From assembly GCA_016186115.1 (NCBI GenBank), contig JACPMK010000003.1, forward strand, positions 26,470-90,469: a stretch of 64,000 nucleotides of DNA, written 5' to 3'. Positions 10,094 through 63,544 of the stretch are shown in pieces. The notes under the pieces are model-generated. The model was not told the origin of the DNA, did no database searches, and worked only from the letters and a program-made list of their open reading frames with translations. The position numbers and the translations under genes are program-made. Origin of the DNA: Candidatus Wildermuthbacteria bacterium (lineage in GTDB: Bacteria > Patescibacteriota > Minisyncoccia > Minisyncoccales > UBA10102). How positions within the stretch are numbered: position 1 is the first letter of the stretch; each line of letters opens with the position of its first letter.

Positions 10094-11212
10094 ATGAAAG
10101 TAAGTGTACGAAAAGAAAATTTAAAAGAAGGATTGTTTGTTGTGGAACGAGCGATCTCAAAATCGCTAACCCTGCCAATTTTGGGGAACGTCTTGCTGTT
10201 TGTAGAAAAAAATTTCCTTGAATTGGCGGCCACCGATCTCGAAATAGGGGTGCGGTACCGCATTCTTGCGAAGACCGATGAAGAAGGGCAGGTGGTCGCG
10301 CCCGCAAAGGCGCTTTCTCAATTTGTCGCGCTTCTCCCCGCGGCATCGGTTGCGCTTGATGCCAACGAAAAAAGCATGGAAGTTTCCTCTGGCGAGTACG
10401 CCACCAAAATCAAAGTCCTGTCTCCAGACGAGTTTCCTCTTATACCCCTACCGAAAGACGAAAAATACATCGAACTAGAGGCAAAAACATTTTGCCTTGG
10501 GGTTAACCAGGTGGTTGGGATGGCCGGGACGAGTCAGAGCAGGCCGGAAATCTCTGGAGTGTTTTTTTCTTTTGGAGAAAACCAGGTTCGGATTGCGGCA
10601 ACCGACAGCTTTCGGCTTGGAGAGAAGGTCCTTCGCTTGGAAGCGCCACAAGAAGAACGAAGTTTTATTCTGCCCCAACGAGCAGCCCGGGAACTGGTCT
10701 CGATATTTGGCGAAAGGGAGGGGCAGATAAAAACCTACTTTTCCCCAACGCAAGTAATTTTTGATTATATTGCAAACGATCCTTCCCAATCTCGCATCCA
10801 GCTTGTTTCCCGGCTTATCGAAGGAGAGTACCCTCGTTATCGGGATATTGTTCCCTCTCGATACAAAACCAGGGCAGTTGTTGATAAAAATGAGTTCATC
10901 AACCGCATAAAAATTGCGGGTATTTTTTCTGGCAAAACCAGCGAAGTTCGACTCGAGTTCCAGCCCGAAAAAAAAGGAATTGCCATTTTTTCCCAAAATA
11001 CCGACATAGGAGAACAGCATTCTTTTCTTTCGGCAGAGGTTACGGGAGAGCCAATGGAGGCCGCTTTTAATTGGAAATTTCTTTTGGAGGGGGCGCTGGG
11101 AGTGGAGGCAAATTCTTTGGAGATGGCAATGAGCGCGGAAGATGGTCCGGCAGCGTTTCTCCCCCCAGCAGAGGAAGGGTATATGTATATCATTATGCCC
11201 ATCCGAATGTAG
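10094..11212 (+). CDS. dnaN: DNA polymerase III beta sliding clamp
   Basis: 372-aa three-domain clamp pattern (ATDSFRL, LIEGEYPRY motifs), directly after dnaA. Confidence 0.95.
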   Translation: MKVSVRKENLKEGLFVVERAISKSLTLPILGNVLLFVEKNFLELAATDLEIGVRYRILAKTDEEGQVVAPAKALSQFVALLPAASVALDANEKSMEVSSGEYATKIKVLSPDEFPLIPLPKDEKYIELEAKTFCLGVNQVVGMAGTSQSRPEISGVFFSFGENQVRIAATDSFRLGEKVLRLEAPQEERSFILPQRAARELVSIFGEREGQIKTYFSPTQVIFDYIANDPSQSRIQLVSRLIEGEYPRYRDIVPSRYKTRAVVDKNEFINRIKIAGIFSGKTSEVRLEFQPEKKGIAIFSQNTDIGEQHSFLSAEVTGEPMEAAFNWKFLLEGALGVEANSLEMAMSAEDGPAAFLPPAEEGYMYIIMPIRM

Positions 11213-11227
11213 CGTACCTTACTTCTT

Positions 11228-13141
11228 CTACTGGGCGGGAGAGGAAAGATAGGGAAGCGCATTCCTCATAAAATAGTTCCAGATTGGAGCAGCAAGCTCA
11301 ACGCCGGGCCCACGTTCCATGTAATCATTGTTGTTGTTTCCAACCCATGCTCCGGCAACAATTTTATCGGTATAGCCAATAGCCCAAGCATCTTTATAGT
11401 CCTGCGTAGTTCCTGTTTTTGCCGCAACGCGATACCCTTCAATATAAAGCGGAGAGCGGGCTCCGAAGATGGGGGCCCGTGCGTCGTTATCAGAAAGAAT
11501 GTCAGTAATGAGTCGGGCTACATCAGGAGAGAGAACTGTCGCGGGGATTTTTTTGTTTTCTTCAATGGTATCTCCTTCAGAATCCTTGATGCGGATAATG
11601 GAAACAGGCGGCACCCTTCTCCCTTCGGTGGCAAAGACGCCGTAGGCCGAGGTTATATCTAGTAGCCGAACCTCTCCTCCTCCCAAAACCAAAGCGGGGC
11701 CGTAAAAAGAGAGATCGCGATTCAACGTGGTAACCCCCATTTTTTTTGCGGTCTCGATGCTTTCTTGGATGCCTGCGTACTCCAGCAGGGTTTTTACCGC
11801 GGGGATGTTCAATGATTGAGCGAGGGCAACGCGGATGGTTACGGGGCCACGGAATTTCCCGTCGTAGTTTTGGGGAATGTATTCTTTCCCGCCCCATACT
11901 CCAAAGTTCGTGAGCTCATCTATAATAATGGTTTGATCGTTTGCCGCCCCTCTTTCAAATGCAGTTGCGTATACAAAGGGCTTGAACGCGGAACCCGGTT
12001 GGCGTCCGGGGTACGCGTTCACAATATTAACCTTGGGGTCAAAAAGACAATTTTTGCCCGGGACGCATCCTTTTGGATAAGAATCTCCGTCCCAGCTTTT
12101 AGATCCTACCATAGCGAGAATTTCTCCTGTTTGGGGGGTGATTGCAACCAGCGCCGCATTATGCGCATTGTATGCCTTATTGCGCTCGACATAAGTCTGG
12201 ACCGCCGTTTCCGCGGCTTTTTGTAGATTCCAATCCAAGCTCGTATACACATTAAGCCCGTTTGTCCGGACAAAATCCTCTCCGTATCGGTCGAATAGCT
12301 GGTCGAGAATATACATGATAAAGTGAGGGGCTTTAATGCTCTCGGAGGGTTCCTGCGAGAGGAATTGTATCTCTGCTTTTTTCGCGTCTTCGGCCTCGTT
12401 GGTAGCGATGTATTCTTCCTGTGCCATGCGGTCTAGCACGTAATTTTTTCTTGCCAGCAATTTATCTTTCCGGTCGCCATATGGAGAATAATAAGAAGGT
12501 GCTTGGATCAGCGCAGCAAGGGTTGCGGATTCTGCAAGCGTAAGTTCGCCCGGCTTTTTACGAAAATAGAGTTGCGAGGCCGCACCCACGCCATAGGTGT
12601 TTGCGCCCAAGGGTACTTGATTGAGATAAAATCCCAAAATTTCATCCTTGGAATAGCGGCGCTCCAATTCAAGGGTGATAACAACTTCTTTGATTTTTCG
12701 TTCGAATGTTTTTTCTCTGGTGAGAAATGAGGTGCGCACTAACTGTTGAGTAATAGTTGAGCCGCCTTGAGCAGGACCACGCAGCCGGATATTTGCAAGA
12801 GCTGCTCTGGCAATGCTTGTGGGGTCAATGCCGAAATGATGGTAGAATCTCCTGTCTTCAGTTGCGATTACTGCCTGCTGAAGATATTTTGGAGTTTCCG
12901 AAAGCAGGACAGGATCGCGCTTTTCTTTTTCGTAAATTTCGTAGAGAAGCACTTTGCCGGTTCTGTCGTAAATTTTTGTGGGCTGGGAGAACGATGCTTC
13001 GGTGAATCGTTCGGGTCGCGGGAGGTCTTTTGTGTAATAAAAAAACAAGCCCATAATCACTGCAATCCCGAGCACCATAACCGCAAAGAAGGCCCCGATG
13101 CCCCACACAATGCCGCGCATGAGTGTTTTATGAGTTCGCAT
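11228..13141 (-). CDS. Class A penicillin-binding protein (transglycosylase/transpeptidase, PBP1A family)
   Basis: N-terminal TM; GT51 motifs EDRRFYHHFGID and GGSTITQQL; transpeptidase motifs SAFKPF and KTGTT. Confidence 0.9.
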   Translation of the reverse strand: MRTHKTLMRGIVWGIGAFFAVMVLGIAVIMGLFFYYTKDLPRPERFTEASFSQPTKIYDRTGKVLLYEIYEKEKRDPVLLSETPKYLQQAVIATEDRRFYHHFGIDPTSIARAALANIRLRGPAQGGSTITQQLVRTSFLTREKTFERKIKEVVITLELERRYSKDEILGFYLNQVPLGANTYGVGAASQLYFRKKPGELTLAESATLAALIQAPSYYSPYGDRKDKLLARKNYVLDRMAQEEYIATNEAEDAKKAEIQFLSQEPSESIKAPHFIMYILDQLFDRYGEDFVRTNGLNVYTSLDWNLQKAAETAVQTYVERNKAYNAHNAALVAITPQTGEILAMVGSKSWDGDSYPKGCVPGKNCLFDPKVNIVNAYPGRQPGSAFKPFVYATAFERGAANDQTIIIDELTNFGVWGGKEYIPQNYDGKFRGPVTIRVALAQSLNIPAVKTLLEYAGIQESIETAKKMGVTTLNRDLSFYGPALVLGGGEVRLLDITSAYGVFATEGRRVPPVSIIRIKDSEGDTIEENKKIPATVLSPDVARLITDILSDNDARAPIFGARSPLYIEGYRVAAKTGTTQDYKDAWAIGYTDKIVAGAWVGNNNNDYMERGPGVELAAPIWNYFMRNALPYLSSPAQ

Positions 13142-31602: not shown

Positions 31603-31821
31603 ATGACAGGAAAGAATTTGCCCAAAAGCATACGGAAGTTTATTCGTCAAGAAAAAGCCAGAATTCGAAGGCAGATTTTTGATCCCAAAGAACAAGCCAA
31701 AGCAATCGAAGAGCTTTACCAGCGCATATATAATCAATACGGAAAATCAACAGTAAAGCAATCCAAAGAGATTCCCAATAAACCTAGGCTTGCCTTGAGC
31801 GAAGTTGAAGAGTCCCCATAG
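31603..31821 (+). CDS. Small basic protein (72 aa), uncertain
   Basis: Track ORF rich in K/R/Q. Its last 10 nt overlap the tRNA-Arg 5' end. No SD. Confidence 0.35.
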   Translation: MTGKNLPKSIRKFIRQEKARIRRQIFDPKEQAKAIEELYQRIYNQYGKSTVKQSKEIPNKPRLALSEVEESP

Positions 31822-31884
31822 TTTAACGGATAAAGCGTTGGCCTCCGAAGCCAAAGATTGGAGGTCCGATTCCTCCTGGGGACA
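31812..31884 (+). tRNA. tRNA-Arg (anticodon CCG)
   Basis: Hand-folded cloverleaf: acceptor GTCCCCA/TGGGGAC, D arm GTTT-AACGGATA-AAGC, anticodon arm TTGGC-CTCCGAA-GCCAA, T arm GGAGG-TCCGATT-CCTCC, discriminator A. 73 nt, no encoded CCA. Confidence 0.9.
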
Positions 31885-45261: not shown

Positions 45262-45265
45262 AAAG

Positions 45266-45614
45266 TGGAGGTGGCGGGTACCGACCCCGCGTCTGGACAG
45301 GTCAAGGAATACAATCTTCAGGCATAGTCCGGTTGAGGTTGAGAAAGGGTTAAAACCGGACAAAATCCCTTTCCCTTAAGATCGAAAGGTTCAATAGTTC
45401 TCCTGATCTTAAAGAGAGCTATCTATCTCGATGGTTGGCACCTATTCCGTATACCGAGAATCAGCGGATAGGCGGCCTAAGCATTTTATGCGTAGGCAAG
45501 TGCCCTTTGAGGGGCAAATGGATTGGCAGTTGTTACTGCTCCAAGTTTTGAAGAGTTCTTGGAACTCTGTCTGCAGCATTCCTGTTGCTGTCCATCGAAA
45601 CCCTGTTCACCCCC
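45266..45614 (-). ncRNA. ssrA: tmRNA (SsrA), 349 nt
   Basis: 5' end is GGGGGTGAACAGGGTTTCGATGG and 3' end is GACGCGGGGTCGGTACCCGCCACCTCCA. Acceptor GGGGGUG/CACCUCC has the G3-U pair. Tag ORF (45527..45486) encodes ANPFAPQRALAYA plus stop. Adjacent to smpB. Confidence 0.85.
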
Positions 45615-58117: not shown

Positions 58118-58788
58118 TGGGCACTCTTTTTATTGTCGCCACACCAATCGGCAATCTCGAAGATATTACTCATCGGGCGCTTCGCGTATTGCGCCAAGCA
58201 GATTTTATCTTATGCGAAGATACAAGGGTTACCAAGAAATTGCTCGATCATTACGGAATTGCAACTCCAACGTTGAGCTATCATCAACACAGCACTCCAG
58301 AGAAGATGAGCTATGTTTTTGGTCTTTTATCTACTGGAAAGAATATCGCATTGGTTTCTGATTCCGGAACTCCCGGAATTGCAGACCCCGGCAATGAACT
58401 CATCGAATTTTTGCTCCAGAAAAATCCCGGAATAAACATAGCTCCTATTCCTGGCCCTTCTGCGGTCGCCGCAATCGCAAGCATTTCTGGGTTTCCAACG
58501 AATTCCTTTTTATTCTTGGGATATCCGCCGAGTAAAAAAGGCAGAAAGAAATTTTTTGAGAAAGTTGCAGAGTCGCAATGCCCAGTGATTTTCTACGAGT
58601 CGCCCTACCGGATTATAAAAACTCTGCAGCAGTTGCAGGAGTTAAGCCCAGAGGTATATGCGGTAGTGGGCAGGGAACTTACCAAACAATTCGAAACAAT
58701 CTCCCGCGGCCCTATTGACCAAGTGCTCCAAATAATGCAGAAAGATAAGGTAAAAGGAGAATTTGTGGTAATTGTATACAACCAATGA
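58117..58788 (+). CDS. rsmI: 16S rRNA (cytidine1402-2'-O)-methyltransferase
   Basis: LFIVATPIGNLEDIT, CEDTR, DSGTPGIADPG, and a tetrapyrrole-methylase fold pattern. Confidence 0.9.
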   Translation: MGTLFIVATPIGNLEDITHRALRVLRQADFILCEDTRVTKKLLDHYGIATPTLSYHQHSTPEKMSYVFGLLSTGKNIALVSDSGTPGIADPGNELIEFLLQKNPGINIAPIPGPSAVAAIASISGFPTNSFLFLGYPPSKKGRKKFFEKVAESQCPVIFYESPYRIIKTLQQLQELSPEVYAVVGRELTKQFETISRGPIDQVLQIMQKDKVKGEFVVIVYNQ

Positions 58789-60278
58789 ACAAAAAATTCT
58801 ATATCACAACTGCAATTCCCTATGTGAATGCCCGCCCGCACATCGGGCATGCTTTGGAATTTATTCAGGCCGATGTCATTGCGCGCTACCATCGTCTGAA
58901 GGGTGAGGAGGTTTTGCTTTTGTCTGGAAGCGATGAGAATGCGCTTAAAAATGTTCAAGCCGCCCAGAGCGCCGGAGTCCCTGTGCAGCAATTTATTGAT
59001 GAAAACGCCGTGCTTTTTGTCGAGTTGGCCAATGCGCTTGGCGTGCAATTCGACGTATTTCAAAAGGGAAGCAGCAAAGAACACCATCTCTCCAGTCAGA
59101 AACTGTGGCAACTTTGCGCCGAAAATGGGGATATCTACAAAAAATCCTACGAAGGTTTGTACTGCACGGGATGCGAAGCATTTTATACTCCAGATGAGCT
59201 TGATGCGAATCAGGAATGCCTTGAGCATCCCGGCCGAAAACTCGAGAGCGTCTCCGAAGAAAATTATTTTTTCAAACTTTCACGATATCAGGACAAAATC
59301 ATTAGTGTATTGGAAAGCGATGAATTGGAAATTGTTCCCGCGACCCGAAAAAATGAAATGCTCGCTTTTTTGAAACAGACACTGCAAGATATTAGCATTT
59401 CGCGCACCAATGAACGCGCCAAAAATTGGGGCGTGCCAGTTCCGGCCGATGATTCTCAAAGAATGTATGTTTGGTTCGATGCCCTCAATATGTATCAGTC
59501 GGGAGTTGGATTTGGATTAGATGAACAAAAGCATAACAAGTGGTGGCCGGCAGATATTCATGTGATTGGCAAGGGGATTATTCGTTTTCACGCGGTGTAC
59601 TGGCCGGCATTTCTTTTGTCGGCTGGGTTGCCTTTGCCCAAGAAAATCTTTGTTCATGGCTATATCACTTCAAGCGGACAAAAAATGTCAAAGACACTGG
59701 GAAATGTGGTTGATCCTTTTCCGCTTGTCGAAAAATATGGAAGTGGTGCAGTACGTTACTTTTTCTTGCGCGAAATTCCGCCGACAGAAGACGGCGATTT
59801 TTCCTATGAAAAATTCGAAGAGAGGTATAATTCTGACCTTGCGAGTGGTTTGGGAAATCTTGTCGCGAGAGTACTCGCGCTTGTAGGAAAAATAAATCCG
59901 AAATCCTTTGACAAGCTCAGAATCCCGAGCGAAGTCGAGGGACAAATTCAAAGTCCAAAACTGCGGGAAATTATAAATGCAGCGAGAGAAAAGGTGGATA
60001 CGGCGTTGGAAAAGTTTCAGTTTCAGGATGCGTTGATTGCCATTTGGGATGTGATTCATTTTTGCGACAGATATATTGAGGAGAAAAAACCGTGGTCTTT
60101 CGACTTCGCTCAAGATAAACCCGATCAAAAAGAAGTAATCGACGATTTATTGCTAGCAATTTTAGCAATCGGCACGCTTCTCAAGCCATTTCTCCCCGCG
60201 ACTTCAGAGAAAATAGCGAATCAATTGCAACATGGAAAAGGCGATCCTCTCTTCCCGCGTCTTGACAGAAATGTATGA
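58785..60278 (+). CDS. metG: Methionyl-tRNA synthetase (short form)
   Basis: PYVNARPHIGH (HIGH), KMSKTLGN, zinc knuckle CTGCEAF, C-terminal anticodon-binding helices. Confidence 0.95.
   Translation: MNKKFYITTAIPYVNARPHIGHALEFIQADVIARYHRLKGEEVLLLSGSDENALKNVQAAQSAGVPVQQFIDENAVLFVELANALGVQFDVFQKGSSKEHHLSSQKLWQLCAENGDIYKKSYEGLYCTGCEAFYTPDELDANQECLEHPGRKLESVSEENYFFKLSRYQDKIISVLESDELEIVPATRKNEMLAFLKQTLQDISISRTNERAKNWGVPVPADDSQRMYVWFDALNMYQSGVGFGLDEQKHNKWWPADIHVIGKGIIRFHAVYWPAFLLSAGLPLPKKIFVHGYITSSGQKMSKTLGNVVDPFPLVEKYGSGAVRYFFLREIPPTEDGDFSYEKFEERYNSDLASGLGNLVARVLALVGKINPKSFDKLRIPSEVEGQIQSPKLREIINAAREKVDTALEKFQFQDALIAIWDVIHFCDRYIEEKKPWSFDFAQDKPDQKEVIDDLLLAILAIGTLLKPFLPATSEKIANQLQHGKGDPLFPRLDRNV
59894..59941 (+). 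repeat. In-frame composite insertion in metG: two AAATCCN heptamers plus an imperfect palindrome
   Basis: AAATCCG AAATCCT, then CCTTTGAC (59905-12) / GTCGAGGG (59934-41) pairing with two G-U, and an inner GCTC/GAGC. Translated NPKSFDKLRIPSEVEG. Confidence 0.55.
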
Positions 60279-60289
60279 AAAAGTATACT
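60262..60289 (+). promoter_or_regulatory. Sigma70-type promoter overlapping the metG 3' end (cassette A)
   Basis: TTGACA (60262-67), 16-nt spacer, TATACT (60284-89). Confidence 0.6.
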
Positions 60290-60298
60290 ACACTAATC

Positions 60299-60379
60299 AT
60301 GAGCAGCCAGATCAGAAAAGGATTTTATTTCTTCTTTTTTACCAGCCCCGGCGAAGAGCGAGGTCGTTATTCTTGTTAA
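60299..60379 (+). CDS. Candidate near-leaderless leader peptide with a Phe/Tyr run (26 aa)
   Basis: MSSQIRKGFYFFFFTSPGEERGRYSC. The ATG is about 3-4 nt from the predicted TSS. The F/Y codons 60323-60340 are followed directly by ACCAGCCCC, which can pair with the terminator 3' arm. Confidence 0.35.
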   Translation: MSSQIRKGFYFFFFTSPGEERGRYSC

Positions 60380-60405
60380 TCGAAAACATCTAACCAAGAA
60401 ATCAC

Positions 60406-60441
60406 CCAGCCCTTCGTCAAACGAGGGGCTGGTTTTCTTTT
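60406..60441 (+). terminator. Rho-independent terminator / attenuator in the leader of the 117-aa ORF
   Basis: CCAGCCCTTCG-TCAAA-CGAGGGGCTGG (11 bp, one G-U) followed by TTTTCTTTT. Confidence 0.7.
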
Positions 60442-60542
60442 CGCCCTGCGGCGAAAAGACGATGTTTTCTGATGAGAGCTCCAACACATTCGGGTTTCTC
60501 ACCAGAGAAGATCTTAACTATCTCTGGTTAAGGAGGGAAACA

Positions 60543-60896
60543 ATGGCCGAACATCGTATGGGTATAATACAGGGTAGCACTGGAACGCTCAAAGAGGTTC
60601 TTGGAATGCTTGGGGTGTCGATAACAAAATTCGCATTCCAAGGGCATAATTCGTCGGACTCGTGTGGACAGCAAGGGGTGCATCCTCCTCACGTACTGGA
60701 GGAGTATAGACATTATTGCATTGGGAAAGCTGGCTGTGTGGGAGAGGATGTGCTTATCGTAATTGCCGAAGAACGGCAACTGTACCCAGCACGTGCAAAA
60801 GGGATTTACTTCCTCCTTCCAAGAAATGCATTCCCCTCTTTCCGGGATCCGCTTATGCAAGTTGGCGTAGGGCAAGGTCCTGGATATACCGGCTAA
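60543..60896 (+). CDS. Orphan protein, 117 aa, SD-led (P3)
   Basis: AAGGAGG (60530-36), 6-nt spacer, ATG at 60543. Cys/His-rich middle (SCGQQGVHPPH...YRHYCIGKAGCVGED). No family recognised. Confidence 0.55.
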   Translation: MAEHRMGIIQGSTGTLKEVLGMLGVSITKFAFQGHNSSDSCGQQGVHPPHVLEEYRHYCIGKAGCVGEDVLIVIAEERQLYPARAKGIYFLLPRNAFPSFRDPLMQVGVGQGPGYTG

Positions 60897-60917
60897 ATCT
60901 GGAAAGTACGGCCTATA

Positions 60918-60953
60918 GGGCGGAGCTTTACCGAGCTCCGCCCGTTTTCTTTT
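60918..60953 (+). terminator. Rho-independent terminator
   Basis: GGGCGGAGCT-TTACCG-AGCTCCGCCC (10 bp) followed by GTTTTCTTTT. Confidence 0.8.
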
Positions 60954-60998
60954 GACAAGCAGTTGACAACCCTGTTTTCAATTTGCTATGGTTATAAT
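60952..60998 (+). promoter_or_regulatory. Promoter of cassette B
   Basis: Consensus TATAAT at 60993-98. Two TTGACA copies (60952-57, 60963-68) are spaced too far away for a canonical -35, so the -35 is ambiguous. Confidence 0.45.
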
Positions 60999-61008
60999 AC
61001 TTGAGCTT

Positions 61009-61095
61009 ATGAAGAAAATCTCCCAAACAATGTTGCTTTTGTTGGTCTTGGTAACTAATCCTACTCGGTTGGGAGATTTTGATCGCAGAAGTTAA
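61009..61095 (+). CDS. Candidate near-leaderless leader peptide with a Leu/Val run (28 aa)
   Basis: MKKISQTMLLLLVLVTNPTRLGDFDRRS. The TTG CTT TTG TTG GTC TTG GTA codons are in phase. The ORF spans attenuator segments 1 and 2. Confidence 0.5.
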   Translation: MKKISQTMLLLLVLVTNPTRLGDFDRRS

Positions 61096-61121
61096 AAATA
61101 CAAAATTCCTTGCGACAACGT

Positions 61122-61153
61122 AACCTCCCAACCGCGGGAGGTTTCTTCTTTTG
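61122..61153 (+). terminator. Rho-independent terminator (segments 3:4 of the cassette B attenuator)
   Basis: AACCTCCC-AACCGC-GGGAGGTT followed by TCTTCTTTTGTCTT. Confidence 0.75.
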
Positions 61154-61327
61154 TCTTGAGGAGTAAGGAAAAGTTTATTCCTTATTCCCCAGGCCAGAAG
61201 AGTATGTCTGGTTTGGAGCAGCAAGTTCACCTACCATAAGCGTGAGCGTGCTGTAGGAAGATAATCCTGCGATCGGGTAACATCTGTGAGCAGGATAATC
61301 CTCTGAATTGCTAAGGAGGAGAACGAG

Positions 61328-61387
61328 GTGGTTGAGAAGACCCCCCACTTTCTTGGCTGCTTCGTTCTCTTCCCGCGCAATGTTTAG
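61328..61387 (+). CDS. Possible 19-aa micro-ORF, SD-led
   Basis: AAGGAGG (61313-19), 8-nt spacer, GTG at 61328. Encodes MVEKTPHFLGCFVLFPRNV. Confidence 0.25.
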   Translation: MVEKTPHFLGCFVLFPRNV

Positions 61388-61410
61388 CACATTGTATGAA
61401 GGAGGGTGAG

Positions 61411-61584
61411 ATGTACTTTGGTTCGCACATTTGCTGTCTGGATGCCTTTTTCATAGGGGAGGACGGCAGTGGGGCGGTGAAAAAACTTAAAGAGGCGCCA
61501 CCGCCGCCACCAGAAAACGAAAAGGAGAAACTTCTTCCTGCTGACGAAGACCTGCAAGGTCAGCAGGACGAGAAATCATCCTAG
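61411..61584 (+). CDS. Orphan protein, 57 aa, SD-led (P4)
   Basis: AAGGAGGG (61399-406), then ATG at 61411. Encodes MYFGSHICCLDAFFIGEDGSG...APPPPPENEKEK... with an acidic tail. Confidence 0.45.
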   Translation: MYFGSHICCLDAFFIGEDGSGAVKKLKEAPPPPPENEKEKLLPADEDLQGQQDEKSS

Positions 61585-61594
61585 CTCTCCCATG

Positions 61595-61647
61595 CGGCTC
61601 CTTTTGTTTGCGCATCAACGCGCAGCAGGAGGAGCCGTCCATTTTTT
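61595..61647 (+). terminator. Compound hairpin terminator
   Basis: CGGCTCCT (61595-602) / AGGAGCCG (61630-37) with inner TGCGC/GCGCA, followed by TCCATTTTTT. Confidence 0.6.
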
Positions 61648-61649
61648 AC

Positions 61650-61678
61650 TTGACATTATCCCTTGAGCTTACTAGTAT
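61650..61678 (+). promoter_or_regulatory. Sigma70-type promoter of cassette E
   Basis: TTGACA (61650-55), 17-nt spacer, TAGTAT (61673-78). Confidence 0.55.
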
Positions 61679-61695
61679 AAAATATACTCTTCAGC

Positions 61696-61788
61696 ATGGA
61701 CATTATTTTACAGATCAGACAAGCGATTATTGGCATTATTACCATTATTAGCCCCACCAAACGAGGGAGTTTCTTGCAGCAGCTATAA
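61696..61788 (+). CDS. Candidate leader peptide with an Ile run (30 aa)
   Basis: MDIILQIRQAIIGIITIISPTKRGSFLQQL. Four ATTATT pairs plus one ATC are all in frame with the ATG. Confidence 0.45.
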   Translation: MDIILQIRQAIIGIITIISPTKRGSFLQQL

Positions 61789-61813
61789 ACTACAAACTAC
61801 TAACTAAAATCTG
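61786..61813 (+). repeat. Heptanucleotide-periodic tract (TAAACTA type) between micro-ORF and terminator
   Basis: TAAACTA CAAACTA CTAACTA AAATCTG. Confidence 0.7.
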
Positions 61814-61814
61814 C

Positions 61815-61845
61815 ATCAGCTCCCTCGCGGGGGCTGATTTTTTTG
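61815..61845 (+). terminator. Rho-independent terminator (cassette E)
   Basis: ATCAGCTCCC-TCGC-GGGGGCTGAT (10 bp, one G-U); the run of seven T (61838-61844) begins at the last stem T. Confidence 0.8.
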
Positions 61846-61928
61846 AGCATAGTGCATGGGCTTGATTCTCCAATCTCATTCACTGCGCTCAATACCAGAG
61901 AGTGCAGTAATAGCACGAGGAGGGTGTA

Positions 61929-62111
61929 ATGAAAAGGGAAGAGAAGTCCGATATTATTGAAGAAATCGTGACGGTTCTCGCGGGAGGAGATTTTGCCGGA
62001 GGCGAGAAACAGCGCCGCAAAAATCGAAAAGATAAGCTGGAGAAGAAGAGGTGGGGGAAAGCTGCTGCTGACGCAGGAGCTCTGCCTGCCAAAGACAGTC
62101 TTGATTTGTAA
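61929..62111 (+). CDS. Orphan protein, 60 aa, SD-led (P5), highly charged
   Basis: GAGGAGGG (61916-23), then ATG at 61929. Encodes MKREEKSDIIEEIVTVLAGGDFAGGEKQRRKNRKDKLEKKRWGK.... Confidence 0.5.
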   Translation: MKREEKSDIIEEIVTVLAGGDFAGGEKQRRKNRKDKLEKKRWGKAAADAGALPAKDSLDL

Positions 62112-62136
62112 TTTATGTTTCTCTTCCTTAGGTTTC

Positions 62137-62177
62137 GGGGGCTCGCTGAATGGTTCGCGAAGTGAGCCCCCTTTTTT
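62137..62177 (+). terminator. Rho-independent terminator
   Basis: GGGGGCTCGC / GTGAGCCCCC (10 bp, one G-U), 15-nt loop, followed by TTTTTT. Confidence 0.8.
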
Positions 62178-62192
62178 GTGGAAATATTCCTC

Positions 62193-62221
62193 TTGACGAT
62201 ATTTTGCAAAGAGATTATTCT
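62193..62221 (+). promoter_or_regulatory. Sigma70-type promoter of cassette G
   Basis: TTGACG (62193-98), 17-nt spacer, TATTCT (62216-21). Confidence 0.5.
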
Positions 62222-62281
62222 AGGTATTGTTTTAAGAATCACTGCACCTTAAACAGAGCATTAGTTGAAGGGAGAAGGAGA

Positions 62282-62590
62282 ATGGCAAAGACAGCTGTCC
62301 TCCTTAGGAAGGGGGATTGGCAGAATGGCAGGACGGGAGATTACAGTAAAATCGTAGAGCTGTTGAAGATTCTTCACAGGGAGTTCAAGGTTCAGCGGCT
62401 CTTACTTGATCAGGAAGTTCTTGATGCGTTGCCTTCAAAACTTCGTGATGTTAAGCTTGTGTTTCTTGTTCCCTCCGGAGGCCAGAAGCCACAAACTCCG
62501 GAAGGGATCAAGATAACAATAGCTGAACTTCCAGAGAATTTCTCGAAGATGGAATTCATCGCAGCCGTCTTTCCCGATTTCCCACAATAG
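62282..62590 (+). CDS. Orphan protein, 102 aa, SD-led (P6)
   Basis: GGAGAAGGAG, then ATG at 62282. Encodes MAKTAVLLRKGDWQNGRTGDYSKIVELLKIL.... No family recognised. The longer track start at 62150 was rejected. Confidence 0.55.
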   Translation: MAKTAVLLRKGDWQNGRTGDYSKIVELLKILHREFKVQRLLLDQEVLDALPSKLRDVKLVFLVPSGGQKPQTPEGIKITIAELPENFSKMEFIAAVFPDFPQ

Positions 62591-62618
62591 CCCGTCCACT
62601 AGGCCGGGCTATTTTTTT
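62588..62618 (+). terminator. Rho-independent terminator
   Basis: TAGCCCGTCC-ACTA-GGCCGGGCTA (one mismatch) followed by T7. The stop codon lies in the stem. Confidence 0.75.
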
Positions 62619-62659
62619 GTCTTCTTTATTATTCTTGCTTTTTGAGTACAATAAAACAT

Positions 62660-63544
62660 ATGCCTTTTCTCATCGATACCCATGGACATGTTAATTTCAA
62701 TGCGTTTCGCAACGATGCGGACGATGTTCTTGGCCGCGCATTGAAAAATGATACGTGGGTGATCATGCCCGGCTCTCAATATTCCACATCGCAGCGGGCG
62801 GTTGAAATCGCAGAGCGTTTTAAAAATGGAGTTTTCGCCGCAGTCGGCATTCACCCCATCCATTTGGAGCATCGGGAAGTAGATGTGATGGAGGTACAGT
62901 CAGCGAAGGGAGAGAAAGAGAGCTGGATGACCTTTGAAACTAGAGCCGAAGAATTTGATCATGAGGCCTATAAAGATTTAGCAAAAAGCAAAAAAGTGGT
63001 GGCCATCGGCGAGGTTGGTCTTGACTATTATTACGAACCCAAAGGCAAGGCGAAAAGAGAGGAATTCCGGGCGCGACAAAAGGAAACTCTCGAGAAACAA
63101 ATTTCACTGGCCCTTGAATTGAATCTTCCCGTCATTTTGCATTGCCGCGCCGCCCATCCCGATCTTTTTAATCTACTCACTACCCGCTATCCACTGCCAA
63201 CCAGCGATTTTCGTGGCGTGCTGCATTGTTACACAGGAAATCTTGAGCAGGCGAAAAAATTTTTGGATCTGGGTTTATACTTCGGATTCAATGGTTTGAT
63301 TTTCAAAAAAGTTCCTGCGCTCCCTGATCCGCGCGAAATTATTTCTTTTCTTCCATTGGATCGCATTCTTCTCGAGACCGATTCGCCGTATTTGGTTCCA
63401 TCGCAGGCGGCTGTAGAACGAAATGAACCTTTGTTTGTAAAGTACGTTGCCCAGGAAATTTCCCGCATCAAAAATATCCCCCTTGAAAAGGTAGCAGAAA
63501 TTACCACCCAAAACGCCTTGACTCTTTTCCATTTATCTTTTTAG
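62660..63544 (+). CDS. tatD: TatD family metal-dependent hydrolase/DNase
   Basis: MPFLIDTHGHV start, GIHP, EVGLDYYY, HCR and ETDSPYL motifs. It has an unusually long insert between the GIHP and EVGLDYYY motifs. Confidence 0.9.
   Translation: MPFLIDTHGHVNFNAFRNDADDVLGRALKNDTWVIMPGSQYSTSQRAVEIAERFKNGVFAAVGIHPIHLEHREVDVMEVQSAKGEKESWMTFETRAEEFDHEAYKDLAKSKKVVAIGEVGLDYYYEPKGKAKREEFRARQKETLEKQISLALELNLPVILHCRAAHPDLFNLLTTRYPLPTSDFRGVLHCYTGNLEQAKKFLDLGLYFGFNGLIFKKVPALPDPREIISFLPLDRILLETDSPYLVPSQAAVERNEPLFVKYVAQEISRIKNIPLEKVAEITTQNALTLFHLSF

Follow-up and report, generated by a model that had tools for sequence, protein, structure and literature searches.

The enterobacterial leu (leuL), ilvGMEDA (ilvL) and ilvBN (ivbL) leaders are four-segment leader-peptide attenuators that carry runs of branched-chain codons. 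Leader-peptide attenuation is so far known mainly from Proteobacteria, Actinobacteria and some Firmicutes, and it almost always stands before biosynthetic operons. T-box riboswitches, the tRNA-sensing leaders of Gram-positive bacteria, likewise respond to the charging of tRNA by forming either a terminator or an antiterminator; they have no requirement for an open reading frame (ORF) and are built on a specifier loop and a T-box sequence. In Staphylococcus aureus, a leucine-rich attenuator peptide is associated with ilv-leu, a full branched-chain amino acid biosynthetic operon, and acts with CodY (PMC5794164). Here we describe cassette B, a promoter, leader and terminator unit in the 2.3-kb interval between metG and tatD (the island) of a 64,000-nucleotide (nt) stretch of DNA, which we call the window. 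The host of the window proteins is a Candidatus Wildermuthbacteria metagenome-assembled genome (MAG), a bacterium of the Candidate Phyla Radiation (CPR), or Patescibacteria. In a full-text literature search we found no paper linking leader-peptide attenuation with Patescibacteria or CPR, and none of the six papers found to name Wildermuthbacteria concerns gene regulation, as far as their titles and abstracts tell.

Judged by its sequence, cassette B is most probably a ribosome-mediated (leader-peptide) transcription attenuator. We infer that it reports the supply of charged tRNA-Leu and, probably, that of tRNA-Val. Four kinds of evidence point to this: the anatomy of the leader, its improbability by chance, its conservation and co-variation in relatives, and sister cassettes that stand before cognate genes.

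Anatomy and energetics of the cassette B leader

Cassette B opens with a TTGACA element and two neighboring candidates for the -10 element (Table 1). With either of them, the predicted transcription start falls at about 60999-61005/61006, which leaves a 5' untranslated region (UTR) of only about 3-10 nt before the ATG, and the leader ORF has no Shine-Dalgarno sequence. The original prediction, which this analysis followed up, had singled out the TATAAT and a start about 4 nt before the ATG. The TATAAT is present and the distance lies within the range given here, with the second candidate, TATGGT together with TTGACA, also possible. Its reading of a 28-codon ORF with five Leu and two Val in seven consecutive codons is exact, and the three pairings that it proposed are all perfect: 12 bp between segments 1 and 2 (1:2), 10 bp between segments 2 and 3 (2:3), and 8 bp between segments 3 and 4 (3:4), the last followed by the tail. 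The regulatory codons lie between segments 1 and 2 and the stop codon follows segment 2, again as it had described. Taken as a whole, segment 2 spans 61066-61080 and encodes R-L-G-D-F. The predicted terminator 3:4, as found by a terminator scan, has a stem of 8 bp, five of them G-C, which closes a loop of 6 nt and is followed by a U-rich tail.

Chance is no credible explanation for this anatomy. The only perfect Watson-Crick stems of at least 8 bp in 61000-61156 are these three, and they form the overlapping chain 1:2/2:3/3:4. Such a three-stem chain appeared in none of 3000 dinucleotide-preserving shuffles, and a stem of at least 12 bp of any kind in five of the 3000. The leader folds with z = -3.9, and 0 of 200 shuffles fold as well. 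Given the amino acid usage of the host, seven consecutive Leu/Val codons in a 28-codon ORF have a probability of about 7e-5.

In the mechanism that we propose, a sigma-70-type promoter would start an mRNA with its AUG a few nt from the 5' end, so that a ribosome would load on the leader as soon as it emerges. If Leu-tRNA or Val-tRNA were scarce, the ribosome would stall in the run, on or against segment 1, and would keep segment 1 off segment 2; the 2:3 antiterminator would form, segment 4 would be left without a partner, and polymerase would read on. Smooth translation would instead carry the ribosome across segment 2 to the stop codon at 61093, and 1:2 would re-form or segment 2 would stay covered. 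With segment 2 unavailable, 3:4 would pair and transcription would end at about 61150 at the U-rich tail, giving an RNA of about 150 nt. Read-through would yield a folded 5' UTR of about 250 nt followed by a small ORF, B2, the apparent cargo, and would end at the operon-end terminator. The transcription start, leader translation, stalling, efficiency of termination and any function of the cargo are all predictions in this scheme.

The hairpins have computed energies of -18.5 (1:2), -24.3 (2:3, extended) and -13.6 kcal/mol (3:4). Calculated state by state, the complete states are nearly equal, at -37.4 kcal/mol for 1:2 with 3:4 and -38.1 kcal/mol for 2:3 (with an added helix between segments 1 and 4, 1:4). 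Since they are isoenergetic, the choice between terminator and antiterminator would be kinetic. When the 5' part is masked, the antiterminator (-24.3 kcal/mol) beats the enforced terminator (-20.9 kcal/mol) by 3.4 kcal/mol, and in the growing transcript the minimum free energy (MFE) structure is 1:2 until segment 3 is complete. As modeled, these energetics would be those expected of a kinetic switch. State-by-state energies were used in place of equilibrium folding with a masked ribosome, which proved misleading because it allowed 1:2 to pair across the ribosome and the 1:4 helix to form.

The leader family and its sister cassettes

Ten further members of the leader family (L086, L088, L090, L091, L094, L099, L113, L135, L150 and L167) come from Wildermuthbacteria genomes and metagenomes, reached through a MetRS anchor in GTDB genomes and then through protein homologs and contigs. 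The metagenomes were scanned for the terminator with the pattern AACCTCCCARCCN{1,6}GGGAGGTT. This pattern has 68 unique T-tailed matches (61 from the metagenome scan), of which only seven were new members of the Leu/Val family. Some 30 others are unrelated to it and come from Proteobacteria, where they follow a small secreted protein. A blastn and tblastn search of the island against metG loci of GTDB species, 83 in all, returned nothing but the L004 Phe leader. Synteny of the island ends below about 70% MetRS identity, and the contigs with identical MetRS (L001-L003) are 100% identical across the island and so offer no usable variation.

All 11 members, the window included, have a Leu/Val/Ile run, the terminator, a T-rich tail and 2:3 complementarity. 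A TTGACA-N16-19-TAnnnT promoter precedes every member but L099, whose contig starts inside the promoter with only the -10 visible. The AUG lies 6-18 nt past the -10 with no Shine-Dalgarno sequence, which makes these leaders near-leaderless, and the stop codon falls 0-9 nt after segment 2 throughout the family, a placement thus kept in all 10 homologs. The nucleotides that encode RLGDF/RLGSF are conserved in L090, L094, L099, L088 and L167; because the codons CGG UUG GGA GAU UUU of RLGDF are segment 2 itself, this conservation is at the level of the RNA.

Two of the helices are maintained through changes in sequence. In the 11-sequence alignment 2:3 is paired in 87% of cells, a figure that falls to 26-52% once the partners are shifted by 1-3 columns, and its column pair 101:170 is C:G in seven members, U:A in two and U.G in two. 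Complementarity to segment 2 is also kept by the bases of the terminator loop (AACCG/AGCCAAA), a constraint that a simple terminator would not impose. A 1:2 helix lies near the 5' end of the ORF in 10 of the 11 members (-12.4 to -17.7 kcal/mol; shuffle p 0.000-0.053), and its sequence changes together with each member's own segment 2, the arms being AAAAUCUCCCAA:UUGGGAGAUUUU in the window, AAAUCUUUCAGC:GCUGGGAGAUUU in L094 and UUCAGCCAAAUU:AAUUUGGCUGGAA in L086. The segment-1 region of the window reaches -17.5 kcal/mol with its own segment 2 and only -8.2 kcal/mol with a segment 2 of the L086 type, a cross-pairing control that discriminates for RLGDF-type leaders, not for L086-type leaders. 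For the metagenome members, the independent observations are segment 2, segment 1, the ORF and the promoter. The original prediction had named homologous leaders and compensatory changes in related genomes as a check. The ten homologs provide both, keeping the run and 2:3, and together with the co-varying helices and the sister cassettes described below they lend support to the trp/leu/his-type mechanism that it had put forward.

A 47-codon ORF, MALQLQQQVNMVLSLSTG..FLVGRISYSK, in L084 (11533-11726) and L088 (13080-13271) ends in a B-type segment 2 and a B-type terminator. It is either a long leader variant or a leader with a different start. In the L088 copy, the position of 2:3 that shows co-variation in other loci is a C.A mismatch.

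The metG-tatD interval is a hypervariable island in Wildermuthbacteria, filled with cassettes of this same kind. Leaders with a Leu run precede a stand-alone LeuA allosteric domain (LeuA_dimer) in L004, L089, L091 and L135. A second Leu-leader design, unrelated in sequence, occurs in L004 and L089 with the Leu codons inside segment 1, so that the logic of the attenuator is conserved across different sequences. Phe leaders homologous to that of cassette A, the Phe cassette of the window, share ..FFFFFFTSPAKS.. and the terminator CCAGCCCTTCGC..GAGGGGCTGG; they precede DAHP synthase in L004, L088 and L090, prephenate dehydratase in L084, and an orphan ORF in L089 and the window. The cassette B backbone (segment 2 GGTTGGGAGATTT, encoding RLGD, and terminator CCTCCCAGCC..GGGAGG) carries a Phe run, MQYSASKNFFFFAFFTPLLRLGDLQ, in L086 and L091, and the L091 leader precedes prephenate dehydratase. 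This sequence comparison suggests that amino acid specificity has been swapped on a shared RNA scaffold. Outside this lineage, in the Roizmanbacteria MAG L083, a WW leader (MKIKNNNNWWTTLLW) with a terminator (11052-11450) precedes a trpB-like PALP gene, and the ATG of this Trp leader overlaps the end of a Trp-repressor-family gene. Leader-peptide attenuation thus appears to be in general use in these CPR bacteria, and wherever the downstream gene is recognizable the run of the leader matches it. The original prediction noted a genome with no visible amino acid biosynthesis; this holds for the 2.3-kb island of the window, and the corresponding metG-tatD island of relatives includes aroG, pheA and LeuA-domain genes.

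The locus most like the window is L086, which has five cassettes: Trp (VWWWA), Phe, Ile/Val/Leu, Ile, and a fifth whose run is unclear. All five are followed by small ORFs without a Pfam match.

Several further observations concern these loci. The LeuA_dimer (PF08502) proteins have about 130 amino acids (aa) and lie at 9478-9807 in L004, 12088-12474 in L089, 12979-13374 in L091 and 837-1310 in L135; their ORFs contain no catalytic LeuA domain, and they are possibly leucine-binding regulators. The Phe-run leaders on the B backbone occupy 9316-9455 in L086 and 10180-10319 in L091 and end in the terminator ..CCTCCCAGCCGGGAGGG. A Trp leader, MKIINNNNWWTTFLW, in L081 (8251-8343) is near-identical to that of L083. 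Leaders rich in His, Trp, Tyr and Arg (e.g., MISVSTSHRMHYCWRADQRGWLLYLHR) with terminators lie directly after metG in L087 (7496-7635), L090 (8494-8623) and L091 (8483-8615), and precede a HAD hydrolase, M20 peptidase or M24 peptidase. The terminator pattern also matched attenuators of other specificity in L103 (2229-3621), L095 (2766-2878), L097 (minus strand) and L111 (454-2391). One is an Ile leader, MTNLNNIIIAIINIIAIEQ, that precedes threonine dehydratase, and another is a Thr leader, MAKNRNNNLTTTTTTQKYAVG; the pheL-like leaders stand ahead of genes that, judged by eye, resemble chorismate mutase/prephenate dehydratase.

In the window itself the island holds three look-alike tandem cassettes, A (Phe), B (Leu/Val) and C (Ile), each with a small orphan ORF downstream (Table 1). 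The leader AUGs lie a few nt past the -10 without a Shine-Dalgarno sequence, while the downstream ORFs have strong ones, among which AGGAGGGTG..ATG is found twice. The ribosome-binding sites of B2 and of the cassette C ORF C2 are almost identical, AGGAGGGTGAGATG (61400-61413) and AGGAGGGTGTAATG (61918-61931), which would fit an origin of the cassettes by duplication. Cassette C shows no segment 1; it has homologs in L086 (11599) and L091 (13539), and a similar leader occurs in L090 (11731). At the Rfam gathering threshold, the whole window contains only a tmRNA and one tRNA, with no match to a leader family, T-box or riboswitch.

Table 1. Positions of the cassette features and other mapped elements in the window, with leader peptides of the family
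Feature	Position	Strand	Remarks
Cassette B -35, TTGACA	60963-60968	+	promoter scan
Cassette B -10 candidate, TATGGT	60987-92	+	18-nt spacer from TTGACA; 10/12 matches; TG precedes the -10
Cassette B -10 candidate, TATAAT	60993-98	+	overlapping -10 region; sequence reading
Cassette B leader ORF, MKKISQTMLLLLVLVTNPTRLGDFDRRS	ATG 61009 to TAA 61093-95	+	28 codons and stop
Segment 1, AAAATCTCCCAA	61015-26	+	codons 3-6; 5' arm of the anti-antiterminator
Regulatory run, UUG CUU UUG UUG GUC UUG GUA (L-L-L-L-V-L-V)	61033-61053	+	codons 9-15; 5 Leu, 2 Val
Segment 2, 2:3 arm, CGGTTGGGAG	61066-75	+	10 bp, perfect, with 61125-34
Segment 2, 1:2 arm, TTGGGAGATTTT	61069-80	+	12 bp, perfect, with 61015-26
Segment 3, terminator part, AACCTCCC	61122-29	+	8 bp, perfect, with segment 4
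Segment 3, antiterminator part, CTCCCAACCG	61125-34	+	
Segment 4, GGGAGGTT	61136-43	+	3' arm of the intrinsic terminator; in terminator-scan list (61122-43)
U-rich tail, TCTTCTTTTGTCTT	61144-57	+	directly after segment 4
Structured read-through 5' UTR	61158-61410	+	six hairpins
5' UTR hairpins	61160-88, 61189-61216, 61218-54, 61256-61304, 61377-95	+	fold
25-bp stem in B2 5' UTR	61315-73	+	fold
ORF B2, apparent cargo	61411-61584	+	57 aa; gene call in L001; strong Shine-Dalgarno AGGAGGG
Operon-end terminator	61594-61647	+	hairpin 61594-61638; U run 61642-47; fold -32.7 kcal/mol
Cassette A promoter	60262		
Cassette A leader, MSSQIRKGFYFFFFTSPGEERGRYSC	ATG 60299		Phe run
Cassette A possible 2:3 pairing	60350-56 with 60412-18		GGCGAAG with CUUCGUC
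Cassette A tandem terminators	60406-32 and 60436-59		
ORF A2	60543-60896		orphan
Cassette C promoter, TTGACA	61650		
Cassette C leader, MDIILQIRQAIIGIITIISPTKRGSFLQQL	61696-61788		Ile-rich
Cassette C 2:3 pairing	61762-71 with 61818-27		
Cassette C terminator	61815-38		
ORF C2	61929-62111		orphan
Fourth ORF, after cassette C	start 62282 (or 62150), end 62590		
metG (short MetRS)	58785-60278		upstream flank of island
tatD (TatD)	62642-63544		downstream flank of island
AI-2E transporter gene			flank of cassette region
rsmI			flank of cassette region
tmRNA gene	45263-45614	-	RF00023, 90.5 bits
tRNA gene	31812-31884	+	Rfam gathering-level match
L167 leader peptide			MKNSQATNLLVLALVLRKRLGDFLA
L090 leader peptide			MSKTSPTRVITLLVLNLRKRLGDFAP
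L094 leader peptide			MNFRNLSALLLNLLLTSRRLGDFVHFKEKTNR
L099 leader peptide			MISKASARIMNLLVLVLNLSKRLGSFA
L088 leader peptide			MANRNMNLLLTLVLNLSKRLGSFV
L150 leader peptide			MIVSNFPMLLNALLVITSCLKVGRFRL
L086, L135, L091 and L113 leader peptides			..IVLVVLLGVTKPLNLAGRNL type

The read-through region and alternative readings

Behind the terminator, structured RNA and an orphan small ORF follow, as the original prediction had said. The B2 5' UTR is exceptionally structured, with an MFE of -118.7 kcal/mol and, for 61144-61425, z = -7.8. Its first hairpin and the CAGGCCAGAA motif, CAGGCC(A)GAA, are conserved in position among relatives, directly behind the attenuator terminator, and the stem sequences differ completely, with compensating changes. 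The module formed by a 10-12-bp hairpin and then (C)AGGCC(A)GAA opening a second hairpin (61160-61216 in the window) is found in the window, L167, L099, L088, L086, L135, L091 and L113; the motif lies 47-52 nt after the terminator in five loci and has no Rfam match. The 5' arm of the 25-bp stem holds AAGGAGG and a GTG (61328) that starts a 19-codon ORF. The promoter of cassette C comes directly after the operon-end terminator.

In the window no downstream gene can be assigned to the metabolism of the sensed amino acid, B2 being an orphan. One could read cassette B as a relic, a genuine family member whose controlled gene, for example a LeuA-domain gene, has been lost, so that it now gates a spurious ORF and leftover hairpins. 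This fits the searches of the cargo: phmmer with B2 against 1.84 billion representatives returned only B2 itself, A2 had homologs among 5.8 billion proteins only in its own organism, and neither Pfam nor NCBIfam matched the island ORFs (the A2, B2, C2 and D proteins). It also fits an island that is clearly in rapid flux and whose corresponding places in relatives hold recognizable genes. A relic would not be expected to keep a promoter, an ORF and three helices all perfect, or a cargo ORF with a strong Shine-Dalgarno sequence and its own terminator, and the first UTR hairpin and its motif have been kept as just described. Behind the same type of leader, ORFs of 57-71 aa with a similar acidic '..LLP..' C-terminal tail ('..E/K..LLP..') stand at the same position in L167, L099 and L088, and in the 49-aa ORF of the L086-type operons 21 of 40 differences fall at third codon positions, as in coding sequence. 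A six-frame Pfam scan (plus strand) of 60280-62641 found no pseudogene remnant. A cognate downstream gene is usual for this class of attenuator and is not mechanistically defining. On these comparisons of sequence the read-through unit looks maintained, and we consider loss of the controlled gene an unlikely but real alternative.

The leader might also be a product in itself, if its terminated RNA (about 150 nt) or its 28-aa peptide acted in trans besides or instead of controlling in cis, as rnTrpL and peTrpL of Sinorhizobium do (PMC7968998, PMC7298713). The cassettes are indeed self-contained units of about 150 nt from promoter to terminator, with a conserved leader and a poorly conserved cargo. 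Set against this, the peptides are free to vary except in the hydrophobic run and in the RLGDF codons, which the RNA constrains, sister cassettes directly before cognate enzymes fit control in cis, and no target complementarity was found, in an analysis that included no search for targets. We rate a role in trans as very improbable. An ordinary hydrophobic micropeptide gene (a membrane peptide, type I toxin or bacteriocin-like product) with a terminator and incidental pairings would account for the stand-alone promoter-ORF-terminator layout and for a hydrophobic core, MLLLLVLV, followed by a charged tail. That stretch is only about 8-9 residues long, too short for a membrane span, and no antisense RNA promoter is evident. 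A micropeptide gene would leave unexplained why the same RNA backbone, GGTTGGGAGATTT with the CCTCCCAGCC terminator, bears a Phe run in two relatives, why 1:2 and 2:3 are maintained through sequence change, and why none of the 3000 shuffles reproduced the three-stem chain; we regard it as scarcely credible.

Several points weigh against reading cassette B as a leader-peptide attenuator. B2 is an orphan, and the physiological rationale for Leu control in this host is thus missing. The regulatory codons stand outside segment 1, in the loop of 1:2 and 7-27 nt beyond that segment; a ribosome would cover segment 1 directly only while one of the first three Leu codons is in its A site, and for later codons of the run the block on 1:2 is assumed to be steric hindrance. 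UUG and CUU are common, not rare, in the host genome, and the U tract is interrupted (UCUUCUUUUGUCUU). Without a Shine-Dalgarno sequence, initiation on the leader would have to be leaderless or Shine-Dalgarno-independent, and its translation is a prediction. In the family, L088 has no 1:2 helix, the co-variation of 2:3 rests mainly on one column pair, and the search pattern itself contained segment 3 and the terminator stem, so that their conservation in the metagenome members is by construction. Transcript ends, translation and regulation are predictions from sequence.

The folding of the complete leader belongs with these points. At equilibrium the MFE structure of the whole leader is 2:3 nested in a 1:4 helix, with a terminator pairing probability of 0, owing to the likeness of segment 1 to segment 3 and of segment 2 to segment 4. 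The pairing scheme of the original prediction is borne out as regards three mutually exclusive helices, and not as regards the preferred structure, which is not the terminator form. Its view that full translation, or none, gives the terminator agrees with the model for full translation; the part on no translation is insecure, the complete states being isoenergetic. Since 2:3 is modeled as more stable than 1:2, the default of an untranslated leader could be read-through or termination via 1:4. The 1:4 helix abuts the U tract and might itself terminate; its complementarity is not conserved in L086-type leaders.

We also put forward, as a tentative idea that may well prove wrong, that the metG-tatD island is an array of starvation sensors, one per amino acid, made of near-leaderless attenuators with interchangeable backbones, with B2 and its neighbors as the functional effectors. 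If so, the array (tuned to Phe, Leu/Val and Ile here, and in relatives also to Trp and others) would not control biosynthetic pathways; its targets would be small proteins that evolve fast, a stand-alone leucine-binding LeuA domain and peptidases, in what would be a scavenging or host-directed response of a new kind in an obligate symbiont unable to make amino acids. Should the cargo be functional, the cassettes would offer a way into the question of how ultra-small symbionts that have almost no biosynthesis sense a shortage of a single amino acid, and would mark starvation-induced genes for annotation in genomes whose small ORFs mostly defy interpretation. Should the cargo be junk, the locus would show regulatory leaders outliving the genes they served.

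Comparison with described attenuators

Like leuL, ilvL and ivbL, cassette B has a short ORF with a Leu/Val(/Ile) run, segments that pair as 1:2, 2:3 and 3:4, and, in the mechanism proposed, a Rho-independent terminator as default with read-through on stalling. Its mixed Leu/Val run recalls the multivalent ilv leaders. Unlike those leaders it lies in a CPR host, shows no similarity to them in sequence or to Rfam models, has no Shine-Dalgarno sequence, an AUG almost at the 5' end and its regulatory codons in the 1:2 loop. Its cargo is an orphan 57-codon ORF (in relatives, a LeuA allosteric-domain protein) in place of a biosynthetic operon.

The best Rfam match on both cassettes B and A is RF01859, Phe_leader, which in cassette B covers 61017-61151 and the full length of the model. 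The scores, 25 bits for B and 18 bits for A (E 0.3 and 9.7), lie below the gathering threshold of 55, and neither cassette counts as a member of RF01859. The hairpin layout of pheL-pheA is the same, with a Phe run there and a Leu/Val run in cassette B. At E <= 10 in 60200-62700 these sub-threshold Phe_leader matches were the only ones. A T-box identity was rejected, given that Rfam had no T-box match at the gathering threshold in the window or at E <= 10 in that same region.

The position of the sensing ORF, at or near the 5' end of the transcript and without a Shine-Dalgarno sequence, resembles that of the mycobacterial polycysteine leaderless ORFs (bioRxiv 10.1101/834739). As in the leaderless attenuators and amino acid leaders of Actinobacteria, a run of codons for a single amino acid would control downstream genes (bioRxiv 10.1101/834739, PMC1262725). 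Phylum and sequences differ from those of the actinobacterial leaders, and the likeness drawn here is one of ORF layout. With S. aureus ilv-leu, cassette B shares a Leu-rich leader peptide with proposed control over transcription read-through outside Proteobacteria, and unlike that operon it has no biosynthetic genes behind it (PMC5794164).

Taken together, the comparative sequence evidence indicates that leader-peptide attenuation is common in a lineage of CPR/Patescibacteria, where it occurs in arrays of differing amino acid specificity. The genes that it appears to gate there are small orphan ORFs, isolated copies of aroG or pheA, and genes for peptidases and for a LeuA allosteric domain that stands alone. 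Compared with the described systems, what is unusual here is the host lineage, the arrays of mixed specificity, the interchangeable backbones, and the non-biosynthetic or orphan cargo.

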